A DNA stretch of 12,991 nt from a virus, in UHGV virus genome UHGV-0043381; one strand, given 5' to 3'. The notes below the pieces were generated by a model that saw nothing but the letters and a program-made list of their open reading frames with translations, was not told the origin of the DNA and did not search any database. Made by a program: the position numbers and the translations under genes. Shown in pieces: positions 50 through 12,991 of this stretch (within the stretch, counting starts at the first letter, position 1; every line of letters starts with the position of its first letter).

Positions 50-634
50 CTATTCGATAATGGGTACTGTTGGCCATTCAATATCCGGTGCAGTTGTTGT
101 ATTAACACGGTTCAGCAACACCCGATATTTTTTCCAGGCTTCCAGCAATGAGGTTTCTTCCTCCGTTGCGATCTCCAGATCTACAGCATCCTGAAGTGGC
201 GCTATATGCTCACTGGCTACCTGCATCAGGCTGTTTTTTGTTTCTTCCGCCTCCCGGATCCGGAACAGTTTTTCTGCTTCCGTATCCTTCACCCAGGCTG
301 TGCCGTTCCACTTCTGATATTCCCCTTCCGGCGATAACCAGGTGACATTTTCCGGTAACGAGCCAAGTTCAGAAATAAATAACGCGTCGCCGGAAGCCAC
401 GTCATAGACGGTTTTTCCCCGATGATCTTCAACGAGATGCCACGATGCCTCATCACTGTTGAAAACAGCCACAAAGCCAGCCGGAATATCTGGCGGTGCA
501 ATATCGGTACTGTTTGCTGGCAGACCTGTATGAGGCGGAATATATGCGTCACCTTCACCAATAAATTCATTAGTTCCGGCCAGCAGATTATAAATTTTTA
601 TGGTCCGTGCTTGTTCACTCATTCTGAATGCCAT
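50..634 (-). CDS. tfa: Tail fiber assembly protein Tfa (lambda-type), 194 aa
   Basis: ORF-track protein [44 protein letters not shown]... matches my recollection of lambda Tfa along its whole length. ATG at 634-632 overlaps the TAA of the upstream frame (TAATG), as at lambda stf/tfa. Stop TAG at 52-50. Confidence 0.9.
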
Positions 635-2316
635 TATGCAAGCCTCACAATATAGTTAAATGCGATATTTTTGACGGTGTTTTCCGCGTTACCAGCAGCG
701 TTAACGGTGATGGTGTGTCCATGTGAGCCAATCGCAACCGAGTGCGTATGAGCACCAATATCCGTACCGATTTCGGTAAGGTAAACCCCGTTTTTGTTTC
801 GCTTACGTGGCATGCTGGCCACTGGCTTTCCGTAGACGGATGCCCCTTTAATGGGGATCACCCGGAACAGCCCATGTTTTTTCGAGCGTTCATACACAAT
901 GGTCGGGTCAATCCCGCCAGTATCCCAGCAGATACGGGATATCGACATTTCTGCACCATTCCGGCGGGTATAGGTTTTATTGATGGCCTCATCCACACGC
1001 AGCAGCGTCTGTTCATCGTCGTGGCGGCCCATAATAATCTGCCGGTCAATCAGCCAGCTTTCCTCACCCGGCCCCCATCCCCATACGCGCATTTCGTAGC
1101 GGTCCAGCTGGGAGTCGATACCGGCGGTCAGGTAAGCCACACGGTCAGGAACGGGCGCTGAATAATGCTCTTTCCGCTCCGCCATCACCTCAGCATCCGG
1201 ACGTTCGCCAATTTTCGCTTCCCATGTCTCACCGAGCGTGGTGTTCACGAAGGTTTTACGTTTTCCCGTATCCCCTTTCGTCTTCATCCAGTCTTTGACA
1301 ATCTGCACCCAGGTGGTGAACGGGCTGTACGCCGTCCAGATGTGAAAGGTCACACTGTCCGGCGGCTCAATCTCTTCACCGGATGACGAAAACCAGAGAA
1401 TGCCATCACGGGTCCAGATCCCGGTCTTTTCGCAGATATAACGGGCATCAGTAAAGTCCAGCTCCTGCTGGCGGATGACGCAGGCATTATGCTCGCAGAG
1501 ATAAAACACGCTGGAGGGGTCATCCGGCGTCCATTTGAGGCCAAACGGCGCCTCTTTGTCGCCAAATTTAAGATACTGCTCCTCCCCGCAGTGCGGGCAG
1601 GCAACATGAAAACGCATAAAATGCGGGGATTCACTGGCTGCACGCTCAATCTGGCAGGTGCCTCTCACTTTGGGCGTGGAGCCACGGATGGACTTTGGCC
1701 AGACCGAGCCTTCAATACGTTTGTCGCCAAGGAACGTCGGAGAGCCTTCCTGTTCAATATCCTCATCAAAGGCAGCAAGTTCATCATAACCCGCCACATC
1801 CACCGACTTTTCACGGTAGTTTTTTGCCGCTTTACCGCCCAGGCACCAGAAGCCACGACCATTGGAAAAACGCTTCATGGTGAGCGTGTTATCCCGGTGC
1901 TTTTTGCCATACCACGGAGCCAGCGCCAGCAGCGACGGAATATCGCGGATGGTCGGCTCAACGTGGGTTTTCATAAAGTTCTCGGCATCACCATCCGTCG
2001 GCAACCAGATAAGGGTGTTGCGCTGCTTATGCTCTATAAAGTAGGCATAAACACCCAGCAGCATTTTGGAATAACCGACACGGGCAGACTTCACCACATT
2101 CACCTCACGGATGTAGTCGCTGCCCATCGCATTCATGATGGCCCGCTGAAAGGGCAGTGTTTCCCAGCGCCCTTCCTGGTATGCGGATTCTTTTGGGAGA
2201 TAGTAATTGGCATCCGCCCATTCAACGGCGGTCTGTGGCTCCGGCCTGAACAGTGAGCGAAGCCCGGCGCGGACAAAATGCCGCAGCCTGTTAACCTGAC
2301 TGTTCGATATATTCAC
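634..2316 (-). pseudogene. A: Terminase large subunit gpA, C-terminally truncated (about 519 lambda-like codons) and fused in frame to about 41 unrelated codons, probably the 3' end of a side tail fiber gene
   Basis: Translation [56 protein letters not shown]... follows lambda gpA (641 aa in lambda) through ...[11 protein letters not shown], then diverges to [41 protein letters not shown] before the stop; joint near nt 759. Walker-A-like KSARVGYSK retained. GTG start at 2316 overlaps the nu1 3' end as in lambda. The frame ends exactly where tfa starts. Confidence 0.85.
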
Positions 2317-4894: not shown

Positions 4895-4922
4895 GATATA
4901 AAAAGCCCCGCGAATGCGAGGC
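4895..4922 (-). terminator. Putative intrinsic terminator downstream of Rz/Rz1 (minus strand)
   Basis: Minus-strand hairpin gcctcgc-(attc)-gcggggc, 7-bp stem with one mismatch, followed by TTTTTATATCTG; sits between the Rz stop (5098) and the rha start (4755). Confidence 0.45.
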
Positions 4923-5097
4923 TAAATCCTGGTATTTGTAATGAACTGGCTCTTATCTCAACGCAGCCCCTTACTGCGCGCCAGATGCTCAATATCAAGC
5001 ATCAGCAATGAGATGTTTAATCTGGATTTACTCCAGAAGTGATCACCACCCTGTCTACAGAGCCAGATGTGAAGGATGATGAGTAAAATTATCGCTA

Positions 5098-6863: not shown

Positions 6864-7946
6864 ATGAAAAAATTAACAGTGGCAATTTCTGCTGTAGCTG
6901 CATCAGTACTGATGGCGATGTCTGCTCAGGCAGCTGAAATTTATAATAAAGACAGTAACAAGCTGGATCTGTACGGGAAAGTTAATGCTAAGCACTACTT
7001 CTCCTCTAATGATGCAGATGATGGTGATACTACTTATGCCCGTCTTGGCTTCAAAGGTGAAACCCAAATCAACGATCAACTGACTGGTTTCGGTCAGTGG
7101 GAATATGAATTCAAAGGCAACCGCGCTGAATCTCAAGGTTCCTCCAAAGACAAAACCCGTCTTGCATTTGCAGGCCTGAAATTCGGTGACTACGGCTCAA
7201 TCGATTACGGCCGTAACTACGGTGTAGCATACGACATCGGTGCGTGGACTGACGTTCTGCCAGAATTCGGTGGCGATACCTGGACCCAAACAGATGTATT
7301 CATGACTGGTCGCACCACAGGTGTTGCAACTTATCGTAACAACGACTTCTTTGGTCTGGTTGATGGCCTGAACTTTGCAGCTCAGTATCAGGGCAAAAAT
7401 GACCGAAATGAAGTAACTGAAGCTAATGGCGATGGTTTCGGTTTCTCAACTACTTATGAGTATGAAGGATTCGGCGTGGGTGCAACCTATGCTAAATCTG
7501 ATCGCACTAATAATCAGGTTATCTACGGTAACAACGGTCTGAATGCTTCTGGTCAAAATGCTGAAGTATGGGCAGCTGGTCTGAAATATGATGCGAACAA
7601 CATCTATCTGGCCACCACCTATTCTGAAACCCAGAACATGACTGTTTTTGGTAATAACCATATTGCCAACAAAGCACAAAACTTCGAAGCTGTTGCACAA
7701 TATCAGTTCGACTTCGGCCTGCGTCCATCCGTTGCTTACCTGCATTCTAAAGGAAAAGACTTGGGTGTTTGGGGTGATCAGGACCTGGTTGAATATGTTG
7801 ATGTAGGTGCAACCTATTACTTCAACAAAAATATGTCCACTTTTGTTGACTACAAAATCAACCTGATTGATAAGAGCGATTTCACGAAAGCATCTGGCGT
7901 TGCTACCGATGATATCGTTGCTGTAGGTATGGTTTACCAGTTCTAA
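6864..7946 (+). CDS. nmpC: Outer-membrane general porin of the OmpC/OmpF family (NmpC/OmpD-type), intact, 360 aa
   Basis: Signal peptide [23 protein letters not shown] followed by [24 protein letters not shown]... and C-terminal ...VGMVYQF (terminal Phe typical of OM beta-barrels); matches my recollection of the DLP12 NmpC family. Not IS-interrupted, unlike the K-12 copy. Confidence 0.92.
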
Positions 7947-8082: not shown

Positions 8083-8110
8083 GGGGGCGTTTCAACGCCC
8101 CATTTTTAAT
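8083..8110 (+). terminator. Intrinsic terminator for nmpC (GC stem gggggcg/cgcccc plus T-run)
   Basis: Stem 8083-8089 / 8096-8101 with loop tttcaa, followed by atttttaat on the plus strand. A T-run also precedes the stem, but the minus-strand 3' side is A-rich, so termination is mainly plus-strand. Confidence 0.55.
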
Positions 8111-8740: not shown

Positions 8741-9103
8741 TCATTCATTCCCCATTTCGGTGATGGTCAGTTCCAGCCTCCCACCTTTGGTAACAGGCAT
8801 CTTCACAACGCGGTAATCAACGACCTGAGCATCATCCAGCCAGAAACCTGCTTTAGTGAGTGCGTCAAAAGCGGCTTTTTGCAGATTATCCAGGTCACGG
8901 CGACGGCGATCCGGCATGTGGCACTCAATGCGGATTTTCACAGGCATAGTCAGGCCGATATCCAGCATTGCGTTTTTAATGATTCGGGCGACGTTATCGC
9001 GGTATGCCTGCCCCTCTGCGCTGACGTGCGTGCGCCCGCGATTATGGCGGTAATAGCGATTATTACTCGGAGGCCAGGGTAATGTGATGCTGTAGGTATT
9101 CAC
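8741..9103 (-). CDS. rusA: Holliday junction resolvase RusA, 120 aa
   Basis: [51 protein letters not shown]...[44 protein letters not shown]... matches E. coli RusA; GTG start at 9103 preceded by aagg. Confidence 0.93.
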
Positions 9104-9132
9104 GCCTTAATAACCCCCTCTTTCAGCCAGAT
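9104..9132 (-). pseudogene. 3'-terminal remnant (about 10 codons, ...[10 protein letters not shown]-stop) of a ybcO-like nin-region gene, abutting the deletion joint
   Basis: The minus-strand frame ending at 9100 encodes ...[12 protein letters not shown], which matches my recollection of the YbcO C-terminus, and its stop overlaps the rusA start. Further upstream that frame is merely antisense to bet, so the 72-aa track ORF 9100..9318 is a chimera. Confidence 0.45.
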
Positions 9133-9666
9133 ATCATCAATGAAAACCAGCAGTTTGATGGCATGGACTTTGAGCAGGACAATGAATCCTGCACATGCCG
9201 GATTTACCGCAAAGACCGCAATCATCCGATCTGCGTTACCGAGTGGATGGATGAATGCCGCCGCGAACCATTCAAAACCCGCGAAGGCAGAGAAATCACG
9301 GGGCCGTGGCAGTCGCATCCCAAACGGATGTTACGGCATAAAGCCATGATTCAGTGTGCCCGTCTCGCCTTCGGATTTGCTGGTATCTATGACAAGGATG
9401 AAGCCGAGCGCATTGTCGAAAATACCGCATACACTGCAGAACGTCAGCCGGAACGCGACATCACTCCGGTTAACGATGAAACCATGCAGGAGATTAACAC
9501 TCTGCTGATTGCCCTGGATAAAACATGGGATGACGACTTATTGCCGCTCTGTTCCCAGATATTTCGCCGCGACATTCGCGCATCGTCAGAACTGACACAG
9601 GCCGAAGCAGTGAAAGCTCTTGGATTCCTGAAACAGAAAGCCACTGAGCAGAAGGTGGCTGCATGA
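9133..9666 (+). pseudogene. bet: Lambda Bet (Red-beta recombinase), 5'-truncated; roughly the N-terminal 85 codons missing
   Basis: From about 9133 the frame reads IINENQQFDGMDFEQDNESCTCRIYRKDRNHPICVTEWMDECRREPFKTREGREITGPW...KATEQKVAA, colinear with the C-terminal two thirds of lambda Bet (261 aa) as I recall it. Upstream of about 9130 similarity stops and the frame closes at TGA 9085-9087. No start or promoter context. Confidence 0.85.
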
Positions 9667-10343: not shown

Positions 10344-10750
10344 CGCATCCTCACGATAATATCCGGGTAGGCGCGATCACTTTCATCTACTCCGTTACCG
10401 TCACCGAGGCGTTAGAACTTGATACTGCCAAGAATGGTTACATCCTCCTGGTTCAGGACGCAGAGCCAAACTTCGATATAAATGGCAACTCTCCGGTAAC
10501 TCCGGATGGTTGGGTTATAGTGCCGAAGAAACTAACCGCTGAGAACGGCGCTAAGGGTGTGCTATCCGGTGAATTTTCAGAAACTACGTTTATAAGCTGC
10601 CCGGAATGCTTTGGTGATGATGATTGCGAAACTTGTGACGGCAGCGGAAGAATCGAAATCAAGGTTCCAGTCAGTTGGACAACTATCAAAACTATTTGGG
10701 CTAAAGGGTGTGAGTACTTTTCAATAGTAGCACCGCAGCAAGATGGGTGA
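10334..10750 (+). CDS. Hypothetical protein, 138 aa, with C-terminal CxxC-x5-CxxCxGxG zinc-ribbon-like motif; translationally coupled to exo
   Basis: ATG at 10334 preceded by gggga and overlapping the exo 3' end by 10 nt. Motif ...[21 protein letters not shown]..., where CxxCxGxG is the DnaJ cysteine-rich repeat signature. The N-terminus [19 protein letters not shown] may resemble the start of a lambda exo-adjacent small ORF, but I cannot confirm it. Confidence 0.6.
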
Positions 10751-10876
10751 TGAAAACAAGTATTTATAACTTAAAAGCATTAAAAAATCGCTTATAGATC
10801 AAAAGAAATCTACGTCAAATATTACTATATTTCAATGTGTTATAATTACCCCGTCCATAAAATGGGGGGACACAAA

Positions 10877-11119
10877 ATGTTCAAACGCTGCATCACCAAG
10901 TGTGGAAGCACACCTGACATCCAAGCTTTTATTAATGAAGATGGTAAGCTTGTTGTTGAGAGGAGTGGTCCTTTTATTAGCAAACAACTTATCATTACCT
11001 CTCCAGCGGAGATGGCCGGGGAATGGATAGTTTCTGAACCAGAGGAGTTGCACATCCCGCTTCCTTATGGCCCTCAGGGACTGATTTATAACCGTTATGT
11101 TCAGAAGGAGGCGGGTTGA
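10877..11119 (+). CDS. Hypothetical small protein, 80 aa from the SD-supported ATG (94 aa from ATG 10835)
   Basis: ORF-track frame 10835..11119. ATG at 10877 has gggggga 7 nt upstream; a perfect TATAAT at 10841-10846 in an AT-rich gap suggests its own promoter, in which case 10835 would be inside the leader. No family recognised (contains CITKC). Confidence 0.5.
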   Translation: MFKRCITKCGSTPDIQAFINEDGKLVVERSGPFISKQLIITSPAEMAGEWIVSEPEELHIPLPYGPQGLIYNRYVQKEAG

Positions 11120-11398
11120 CAATGTCAGGCATAACATCGCCGAGAAATCGAAAGAAAAACAGAACAAGGTAAACGTTGACCTTGCAGCATCAGGCATGGA
11201 GTACAGAGAGCGCCTTAACATACCTGTTATCACTGAGCAGGTATCATGAGAGCAACCTGAGCACTCACGCGAGTATTTCATGGAGCGCATCAGATACTAT
11301 CGCGAGCAGTCGTTAAACATGCCCAAGGGAAGCAACCCATGGTATATCGATATGGATGAACAGAACGCCAAGAAGTAAACGCAATTTGAACGAATGCG

Positions 11399-11426
11399 AA
11401 CCCGCCGAGTGCGGGTTTTCTTTTAT
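11399..11426 (+). terminator. Intrinsic terminator (7-bp stem aacccgc/gcgggtt, loop cgagt, T-run)
   Basis: Read directly at 11399-11417, followed by ttcttttatctg; about 20 nt after the stop of the small frame ending at 11378. Confidence 0.55.
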
Positions 11427-11624
11427 CTGAACTCGCTACGGCGAGTTTTGTTTTATGGCGATGATAAATGCACTTCCGAGTTACAGGTGAATAGAATGGA
11501 GAACCATTCAACAGAGTTATCGAAGCCGAGAACATCAGCGACTGCTATGACCACTGGATGCTGTGGGCGCAGATAGCACATGCAGACGTAACCAATATTC
11601 GAATTGAAGAACTGAAAGAACACC

Positions 11625-11652
11625 AAGCCGCCTGATGGCGGTTTTTTCTTGC
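11625..11652 (+). terminator. Intrinsic terminator 25 nt upstream of the xis start
   Basis: Stem aagccgcc (11625-11632) / ggcggttt (11637-11644) with one G-U pair, loop tgat, then a T-run tttttctt. Confidence 0.55.
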
Positions 11653-11674
11653 GTGTAATTGCGGAGACTTTGCG

Positions 11675-11893
11675 ATGTACTTGACACTTCAGGAGTGGAA
11701 CGCTCGCCAGCGACGCCCAAGAAGCCTTGAAACAGTTCGTCGATGGGTGCGCGAATGCAGGATATTCCCTCCTCCGGTTAAGGATGGAAGAGAATATCTG
11801 TTCCACGAATCAGCGGTAAAGGTTGACTTAAATCGACCAGTAACAGGTAGCCTTTTGAAGAGGATCAGAAATGGGAAGAAGGCGAAGTCATGA
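11675..11893 (+). CDS. xis: Excisionase Xis (lambda), 72 aa
   Basis: MYLTLQEWNARQRRPRSLETVRRWVRECRIFPPPVKDGREYLFHESAVKVDLNRPVTGSLLKRIRNGKKAKS is essentially lambda Xis; SD ggag 8 nt upstream; 3' end overlaps int as in lambda. Confidence 0.93.
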   Translation: MYLTLQEWNARQRRPRSLETVRRWVRECRIFPPPVKDGREYLFHESAVKVDLNRPVTGSLLKRIRNGKKAKS

Positions 11894-12941
11894 GCGCCGG
11901 GATTTACCCCCTAACCTTTATATAAGAAACAATGGATATTACTGCTACAGGGACCCAAGGACGGGTAAAGAGTTTGGATTAGGCCGAGACAGGCGAATCG
12001 CAATCACTGAAGCTATACAGGCCAACATTGAGTTATTTTCAGGACACAAACACAAGCCTCTGACAGCGAGAATCAACAGTGATAATTCCGTTACGTTACA
12101 TTCATGGCTTGATCGCTACGAAAAAATCCTGGCCAGCAGAGGAATCAAGCAGAAGACACTCATAAATTACATGAGCAAAATTAAAGCAATAAGGAGGGGT
12201 CTGCCTGATGCTCCACTTGAAGACATCACCACAAAAGAAATTGCGGCAATGCTCAATGGATACATAGACGAGGGCAAGGCGGCGTCAGCCAAGTTAATCA
12301 GATCAACACTGAGCGATGCATTCCGAGAGGCAATAGCTGAAGGCCATATAACAACAAACCCTGTCGCTGCCACTCGCGCAGCAAAATCAGAGGTAAGGAG
12401 ATCAAGACTTACGGCTGACGAATACCTGAAAATTTATCAAGCAGCAGAATCATCACCATGTTGGCTCAGACTTGCAATGGAACTGGCTGTTGTTACCGGG
12501 CAACGAGTTGGTGATTTATGCGAAATGAAGTGGTCTGATATCGTAGATGGATATCTTTATGTCGAGCAAAGCAAAACAGGCGTAAAAATTGCCATCCCAA
12601 CAGCATTGCATGTTGATGCCCTCGGAATATCAATGAAGGAAACACTTGATAAATGCAAAGAGATTCTTGGCGGAGAAACCATAATTGCATCTACTCGTCG
12701 CGAACCGCTTTCATCCGGCACAGTATCAAGGTATTTTATGCGCGCACGAAAAGCATCAGGTCTTTCCTTCGAAGGGGATCCGCCTACCTTTCACGAGTTG
12801 CGCAGTTTGTCTGCAAGACTCTATGAGAAGCAGATAAGCGATAAGTTTGCTCAACATCTTCTCGGGCATAAGTCGGACACCATGGCATCACAGTATCGTG
12901 ATGACAGAGGCAGGGAGTGGGACAAAATTGAAATCAAATAA
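11871..12941 (+). CDS. int: Tyrosine integrase Int (lambda), 356 aa
   Basis: MGRRRSHERRDLPPNLYIRNNGYYCYRDPRTGKEFGLGRDRRIAITEAIQANIELFSGHKHKPLTARINSDNS...HELRSLSARLYEKQISDKFAQHLLGHKSDTMASQYRDDRGREWDKIEIK matches lambda Int at full length, including the catalytic-region motifs. Confidence 0.95.
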   Translation: MGRRRSHERRDLPPNLYIRNNGYYCYRDPRTGKEFGLGRDRRIAITEAIQANIELFSGHKHKPLTARINSDNSVTLHSWLDRYEKILASRGIKQKTLINYMSKIKAIRRGLPDAPLEDITTKEIAAMLNGYIDEGKAASAKLIRSTLSDAFREAIAEGHITTNPVAATRAAKSEVRRSRLTADEYLKIYQAAESSPCWLRLAMELAVVTGQRVGDLCEMKWSDIVDGYLYVEQSKTGVKIAIPTALHVDALGISMKETLDKCKEILGGETIIASTRREPLSSGTVSRYFMRARKASGLSFEGDPPTFHELRSLSARLYEKQISDKFAQHLLGHKSDTMASQYRDDRGREWDKIEIK

Positions 12942-12991
12942 TGATTTTATTTTGACTGATAGTGACCTGTTCGTTGCAACAAATTGATAAG
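12942..12991. other. P' arm of a lambda-type attachment site (attP or prophage attL) with arm-type Int-binding sites; core lies just beyond the window
   Basis: aatgattttattttgactgatagtgacctgttcgttgcaacaaattgataag matches the lambda attP P' arm from memory. The reverse complement of 12953-12969 contains the arm-type motif AGGTCACTATCAGTCAA (P'2/P'3). The window ends before the core. Confidence 0.8.

Follow-up and report, generated by a model that had tools for sequence, protein, structure and literature searches.

In the pL operon of bacteriophage lambda, the N protein acting at nutL overrides the terminators tL1, tL2 and tL3 and the later terminators, and the textbook description is of a leftward operon read only by antiterminated polymerase. 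The int gene is transcribed from the cII-dependent promoter pI, and these transcripts start downstream of the xis ATG. Lambdoid remnants that have decayed and kept int and xis as orphan genes are common. Benedik, Mascarenhas and Campbell reportedly described in Virology in 1983 both the promoter of the integrase gene and the T'I terminator for lambda and 434. We take the hairpin upstream of pI in phage 434 to be this T'I terminator.

Promoter pI is activated by CII (PMC5300877), and a lysogen makes little Int while neither PL nor PI is active (PMC2951348). In lambda's exo-xis region three terminators, designated t3, t4 and t5, were predicted with ARNold (Bloch et al. 2014, PLoS One, Table 4, PMC4195576). 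EAEC O104:H4 is among the strains in which a gene named dgcX, with an adjacent prophage, has been found between ybhC and ybhB (PMC10459773).

Here we analyze terminator-like hairpins upstream of xis in the virus genome UHGV-0043381, a stretch of 12,991 nucleotides that is called the window below. The most probable reading, in our view, is that these hairpins are ordinary inherited terminators of the lambda type, and that the loss of regulators rather than the terminators has stranded the element.

Gene content and losses of the prophage

Relative to the standard lambda map, the window runs in the reverse direction. After the tail-fibre assembly gene at its left end come, from left to right, the genes of the terminase large subunit and Nu1 (- strand), ORFs with DUF3950 and DUF1398 domains, Rha, Rz, lysozyme and holin (-), a porin (+), and the Q antiterminator, ylcG and rusA (-). 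They are followed rightward on the + strand by the C-terminal two-thirds of bet, an intact exo, a fusion ORF with a DUF1317 start, ORF80, a theta-like pseudogene, an orf55 pseudogene, xis, int and the P' arm (Table 1). The truncated terminase gene lies directly against the tail-fibre assembly gene, so the head and tail genes have all been deleted. An Rfam search at gathering thresholds revealed no known structured RNA within 11000-12991; the only match in the window is a full-length one to IS009 (RF02111) at 93-291 (-), which lies within the tail-fibre assembly gene and scores 225 bits (gathering score, 117).

Table 1 Coordinates of the features of the window
Feature	Position	Strand	Description
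Tail-fibre assembly gene	50-634	-	From Pfam and the ORF list
Terminase large subunit gene	634-2316	-	C-terminally truncated, 560 aa; abuts the tail-fibre assembly gene
Deletion junction	9133 (9100-9200)		ninG/DUF1364 remnant joined to bet at codon ~85; located by BLAST against relatives
Second deletion junction	10387-10397		11 nt overlap between two matches; ~2.3 kb of the exo-xis region missing in comparison with the STEC313 prophage
Extended -10 match	10838-10846	+	TGTTATAAT; in the 85-nt gap upstream of ORF80; candidate cassette promoter
ORF80	10877-11119	+	80 aa, no Pfam match; GGGGGG Shine-Dalgarno-like run upstream; a longer 94-aa version starts from 10835
DNA polymerase III theta-like (HolE/Hot-like) pseudogene	11097-11378	+	In-frame TGA at 11247-11249
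T-a, predicted terminator hairpin	11398-11426	+	GAACCCGC-CGAGT-GCGGGTTT then TCTTTTAT; consensus scan site 11398-11418
T-b, predicted terminator hairpin	11429-11456	+	GAACTCGC-TACG-GCGAGTTT then TGTTTTAT; consensus scan site 11429-11448
orf55 (lambdap35) remnant	11468-11635	+	TGG to TAG at codon 9 (11492-11494)
T-c, predicted terminator hairpin	11625-11650	+	AAGCCGCC-TGAT-GGCGGTTT then TTTCTT; consensus scan site 11625-11644
cII-binding box TTGC-N6-TTGC, -35 region of pI	11649-11662	+	Identical to lambda; homologous site annotated in 434
xis	11675-11893	+	Intact, 72 aa; Pfam Exc
int	11871-12941	+	Intact, 356 aa; Pfam Arm-DNA-bind_1, Phage_integrase
Start of the attL P' arm	12942-12991	+	Identical to lambda attP; core beyond the window end

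The late genes are like those of DLP12 of K-12 (essD, rrrD, quuD, ylcG, rusA and a nohD-like gene), and the likeness extends to a porin gene between Q and S. The window porin gene (6864-7946, +, 360 aa) is of the OmpC/NmpC type, lies between the Q antiterminator and holin genes on the opposite strand, and has a strong terminator of its own at 8084-8101. It is similar to DLP12 nmpC and to lc of phage PA-2. In location, relatives of the window resemble the dgcX-associated remnant (PMC10459773), as they occupy attB between ybhB and ybhC beside a diguanylate cyclase gene. The window copy differs from remnants of the DLP12 and dgcX types in that its lambda-type xis and int are still intact and its two deletion junctions are its own.

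The first junction was placed by the matches on its two sides: window 1188-9133 matches the relative L003, and 9133-10397 matches the prophage of E. coli strain STEC313 (L084) within bet. Missing at 9133 are the rest of the nin region, the replication genes, the immunity region, pR, pL, nutL, N, cI, cII, cIII, kil and gam. At the second junction, codons 1-20 of orf60a (DUF1317) are joined to the C-terminal portion of an ORF with a DnaJ-like zinc finger. A first-pass annotation, made from the sequence, had already considered pL and N deleted, and our searches bear this out. The ORF and Pfam inventory of the window contains no match to N, cI, cro, cII, cIII, O or P, no boxB-like site occurs in it at up to 3 mismatches, and tblastn with approximate sequences of lambda N, cII and cIII as queries gave only noise, with no significant match to any of the three. 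Nor is there room in the gene map for a pL-nutL-N antitermination system.

Close copies of the element in complete E. coli genomes sit between ybhB (the bio side) and ybhC, that is, at the lambda attB, and their decay varies: int is truncated in ET881, and exo and bet are lost in 20AR0354. ET881 lacks window 761-1187 and has an IS66 fragment in its place. In none of the 5,426 complete E. coli genomes does a single match cover at least 80% of the window. The window itself is a decayed prophage remnant at the lambda attB.

The accessory cassette upstream of xis

ORF80 is the first gene of an accessory cassette that ends at T-a and T-b. The cassette has no match among 50,697 phage records at megablast sensitivity; the only places where it turned up are E. 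coli prophages and a small number of viral contigs. A moron would be a prophage cassette that brings both a promoter and a terminator for its accessory gene; at the cassette here, T-a and T-b stand at the downstream end, and the sole match to the extended -10 consensus TGNTATAAT stands upstream of ORF80 and is compatible with chance. One match in the window compares with 0.49 expected by chance, and such a match was present in 41% of shuffles. TGTTATAAT may serve as the cassette promoter, and is by itself statistically non-significant.

Programmed recoding at the TGA codon of the theta-like gene was considered and rejected, because a second theta-like pseudogene, in the STEC313 prophage, has its stop at a different codon. 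That pseudogene lies elsewhere in the prophage (L084, 1460-1708). An intact theta-like gene is present in Flyfo siphovirus Tbat2_3 (L090, 821-1075), at the same place as in the window.

Three predicted terminators upstream of xis

The consensus scan places three hairpins, T-a, T-b and T-c, on the same strand as xis and int, each with an 8-pair stem and a T-run. The stems contain 4-5 G-C pairs, the loops are of 4-5 nt, and at least 5 of the following 8 bases are T. The stem of T-c has no more than five G-C pairs, and its closing pairs are weaker. Folded alone, T-a reaches -12.3 kcal/mol (z = -2.5 against shuffles), T-b -11.9 kcal/mol (z = -4.1) and T-c -13.0 kcal/mol (z = -2.7), and all three are kept in the centroid fold of the 291-nt leader 11385-11675.

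A stricter scan, limited to hairpins with a minimum of 8 pairs, of which 4 or more are G-C, and with 5 or more T among the 8 bases that follow, gave four sites on both strands of the 13-kb window, and three of them are T-a, T-b and T-c. The mean over 300 dinucleotide shuffles was 0.76 sites (sd 0.88), and none of these shuffles had three same-strand sites inside 300 nt. The clustering of the three hairpins is beyond chance.

The hairpins are located where terminators would be expected. T-a begins 20 nt past the TAA (11376-11378) of the theta-like ORF, and the original stop codon of orf55, TGA at 11633-11635, is inside the loop of T-c. All three have the anatomy of Rho-independent terminators, i.e., a G+C-rich stem-loop with an immediate T-run, 3' of a coding region on the same strand. 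From this canonical anatomy we predict that transcription terminates at T-a, T-b and T-c.

The first-pass annotation listed two terminators, at 11399-11426 and 11625-11652. Both positions are right to within a base, and T-b, which lies between them, was missed. Its second interval does contain a hairpin, yet the 3' end of that interval, 11649-11652, is the first TTGC of the cII box of pI. The distance of 25 nt that it gave from the second terminator to xis agrees with our coordinates: with the T-run of T-c ending at 11650 and the xis ATG located at 11675, the gap is ~24-25 nt.

Origin of the hairpins in lambda and phage 434

In a megablast search against phages, window 11413-12991 is 98.5% identical to lambda 29340-27762, and the match reaches the window end. 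According to a three-way alignment, the stretch from T-c up to beyond the xis start is identical to lambda. T-c is identical to the predicted t5 of lambda, and T-b departs from the predicted t4 in one base only, where an A in place of G makes a U-A pair out of a U-G pair. Both thus show sequence identity to a lambda hairpin at the orthologous position. T-a is just outside the lambda homology; it is a non-homologous replacement, at the same position, of the lambda t3 that lies 3' of ea8.5. The order, spacing and strand of t3-t5 and their relation to orf55, pI and xis are all as in the window. The difference is upstream and in orf55: the window has ORF80 and the theta-like pseudogene instead of ea8.5, and its orf55 is inactivated. 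Judged by this comparison, T-b and T-c are ancestral equipment inherited from the lambda lineage, and T-a is a positional replacement.

Phage 434 offers a second comparison. Its record (GenBank OL657226.1) annotates a hairpin 24-47 nt before xis as 'terminator, PMID:6305007', and this terminator directly abuts a feature annotated as 'pI promoter; CII-controlled'. As in the window, the T-run of the 434 hairpin enters the TTGC-N6-TTGC cII box of pI, and the downstream sequence is the same. The stem-loop itself, GCCGCA-TCAA-TGCGGC, is not homologous to AAGCCGCC-TGAT-GGCGGTTT of lambda and the window. Hairpins at these positions are therefore already known, as published predictions in lambda and as an annotated terminator at the t5 position in 434. 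A special or acquired insulation of this element was rejected as an explanation, because the same hairpins occur in wild-type lambda and in ~1700 E. coli genomes.

The xis and int genes, pI and the attachment site

The first-pass annotation was correct in considering both recombinase genes intact. Xis of the window has the same sequence as Xis of HK022, 434 and HK97 (100% identity), and G59S is its only difference from lambda Xis; at the nucleotide level, the window and lambda xis genes differ by six synonymous changes and one non-synonymous change. Int differs from lambda Int at two residues and retains all six of the catalytic ones (R212, K235, H308, R311, H333 and Y342). The neighbouring orf55 and theta-like genes carry nonsense mutations, while the xis and int ORFs are undamaged.

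Identity with lambda throughout the pI region (11640-11700) means that this is no int-constitutive variant. T-c abuts the cII box, and the interval 11652-11675 consists of the -35 region and spacer of pI. The window thus has the cII box and the promoter sequence of a lambda pI, and CII and CIII are not available from the same element.

Both 15-bp att cores, attR included, were found in the relative L002, where the P arm is largely conserved; its P1 and P2 arm-type sites are conserved in an alignment judged by eye. The parts of a lambda-type site-specific recombination module are accordingly all present: a tyrosine recombinase with an arm-binding domain and the RKHRHY residues, an Exc-family Xis, and the att arms (attR having been seen in the relative L002).

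Hairpins before xis in other loci

We scanned 83 loci, namely 80 viral contigs with Xis 99-100% identical to the query together with lambda, E. coli relatives and the window. In all 83 Xis-bearing loci a hairpin with a T-run is found 47-80 nt before the xis ATG. These hairpins fall into three non-homologous classes: AAGCCGCC-TGAT-GGCGGTTT, GCCGCA-TCAA-TGCGGC and AAAGGAGC-TTCG-GCTCCTTT. They accompany either a lambda-type Int (~99% identity) or an Int that is ~75% identical to the lambda type. As the loci within each class are nearly identical, the informative comparison is that between the non-homologous classes. Homology between the modules breaks at the hairpin, and the T-run and the pI sequence are common to them.

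Outside this set, Salmonella phage SI8 (Xis 80% identical) has a fourth form of the hairpin at -50, which enters the TTGC-N6-TTGC box. In the distant phage Flyfo siphovirus Tbat2_3 (Xis 43% identical) an intact theta gene is followed by two tandem hairpins and then by xis. No hairpin was found before xis in the Providencia and Pseudomonas relatives examined.

The segment 11380-11900 is present at a coverage of at least 80% in 1696 of the 5426 complete E. coli genomes, and some genomes have up to five copies of the xis segment. In strain STEC313 the segment is 100% identical and is situated inside a far more complete prophage with an immunity region, replication genes, kil, gam, bet and exo. 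On this sequence comparison, stacked terminators are common equipment of functional phages and no trait of this remnant.

The immunity region of the STEC313 prophage (L084, 5673-8622) is Rac-like and includes genes of an XRE repressor, a YdaS/YdaT-type pair, ImmA/IrrE and DUF4411. No lambda-type N or cII is detectable in this prophage, yet it has a lambda-type pI with a cII box and the same terminators before xis.

Discussion

Compared with the pL/N/pI circuit of lambda, the window keeps an identical downstream half (terminators, pI, xis and int), whereas pL, nutL, N, cII and cIII are deleted and the circuit is inoperable. In an intact phage, polymerase from pL, modified by N at nutL (by put RNA in HK022), would read through the terminators and allow both Xis and Int to be made. 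Unmodified polymerase would halt at the terminators, so Xis would appear only after induction. Promoter pI would fire downstream of T-c and of the xis ATG, only in the presence of CII, and would give Int alone. T-a and T-b would close the accessory cassette, which is ORF80 with the theta-like pseudogene in the window and ea8.5 in lambda, and T-c would close orf55 directly against the cII box of pI.

The window would simply have inherited these hairpins, and one deletion took pL, nutL, N, cI, cII and cIII. Both routes to xis and int would thereby be closed and the two intact genes left as orphans. The terminators would be an added barrier against stray transcription from upstream, not the cause of silence. 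For example, a transcript from the possible promoter at 10838-10846, the sole candidate found as a source of stray transcription, would run into the tandem T-a and T-b and after them into T-c. With no known xis promoter, no antitermination and no activator of pI, both genes are expected to be silent, and we infer that the element is unable to excise itself.

The first-pass annotation proposed another arrangement, in which the terminators selectively insulate xis while pI continues to supply Int, and the element is locked in because Int without Xis cannot excise. The starting points of this proposal stand: there are real terminators upstream of xis, pI lies downstream of them and is identical in sequence to lambda, and pL and N are absent. 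The insulation of xis by three terminators with no pL or N, and its expected silence, can be retained, except that this insulation was neither acquired by this element nor special to it, as fully functional phages carry the same terminators. It is the normal state of a lambda-type prophage without N activity, and here it is permanent. The supply of Int is where the proposal fails. Since pI depends on CII (PMC5300877) and cII was lost, together with cIII, in the same deletion, int is expected to be off too; little Int is made without activation of PL or PI (PMC2951348), and pI shows no change from lambda that could make it constitutive. We consider selective insulation with continued Int supply quite improbable. 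It is unlikely, if less so, that excision persists at a low rate owing to read-through of the terminators, an unrecognized promoter, or a co-resident prophage of the lambda, HK022 or 434 type that supplies Xis and Int in trans. Read-through or a fortuitous promoter could give very low levels of Int and Xis that are sufficient for rare excision. The intact state of xis and int, the mostly synonymous changes in xis (6 vs 1), and the presence of both att cores and a largely conserved P arm (P1 and P2 by eye) in a relative with the same remnant are in line with this, and up to five copies of the xis segment in some E. coli genomes make supply in trans plausible. Undamaged xis and int beside neighbours with nonsense mutations could hint at continued use, and recent decay is also compatible with them. 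Against persistent excision are the three consecutive terminators and the fact that no xis promoter was found, and the stepwise decay in place seen in relatives (int in ET881, exo and bet in 20AR0354) fits long residence better than mobility.

The remaining objection concerns the hairpins themselves, which might not usefully terminate transcription and might instead be stabilizers of mRNA 3' ends, processing sites, or traces left at mosaic boundaries by the exchange of cassettes. It is exactly at the hairpins that homology between phage modules stops, as it would at cassette boundaries, and t3-t5 of lambda are predictions (PMC4195576). Yet the canonical anatomy is complete in all three hairpins, which lie on the sense strand directly behind stop codons, four unrelated sequences keep this anatomy at the same spot beside pI, and the 434 record cites a publication for its terminator. 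We regard a role other than termination as very improbable. Inherited terminators combined with lost regulators therefore remain our preferred reading, and, as the same hairpins are found in lambda and its relatives and the regulators have been lost, the finding is an ordinary one.

Its significance beyond correct annotation is small, terminators upstream of xis being textbook lambda design. For annotation, intact int and xis in a remnant do not imply mobility once pL, N and cII are gone, and the activity of pI is not to be assumed without CII.

Four unrelated hairpins at one spot against pI fit the known mosaic exchange of phages at terminator-bounded cassettes. The terminator position kept beside pI across unrelated upstream modules is an illustration of such exchange and no new principle. 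A more ambitious reading of the same four forms, which we find distinctly unlikely, is that selection has kept the hairpin beside the cII box of pI as a dedicated gate, one that would make Xis strictly dependent on antitermination, and that in decayed prophages this gate, with T-a and T-b, would stop a cassette promoter from triggering excision. If such a gate existed, it would have helped the host to keep the remnant and its cargo, for example the diguanylate cyclase gene by attR in relatives. This gene lies between attR and the tail-fibre assembly gene (L002, 4645-5976; L003, 6645-7976), just past the left end of the window, and is probably dgcX. Cargo of this kind could explain why the remnant has been retained.

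A further hairpin, at 4904-4923 (-) between the lysis cassette and Rha, is the strongest terminator-like hairpin of the - strand. Its core CCTCGCATTCGCGGGG almost equals the core CCTCGCACTCGCGGGG of lambda t3, and the 16-mer pattern was matched in 0 of 200 shuffles. The same terminator motif may have been reused at different cassette boundaries of lambdoid genomes.
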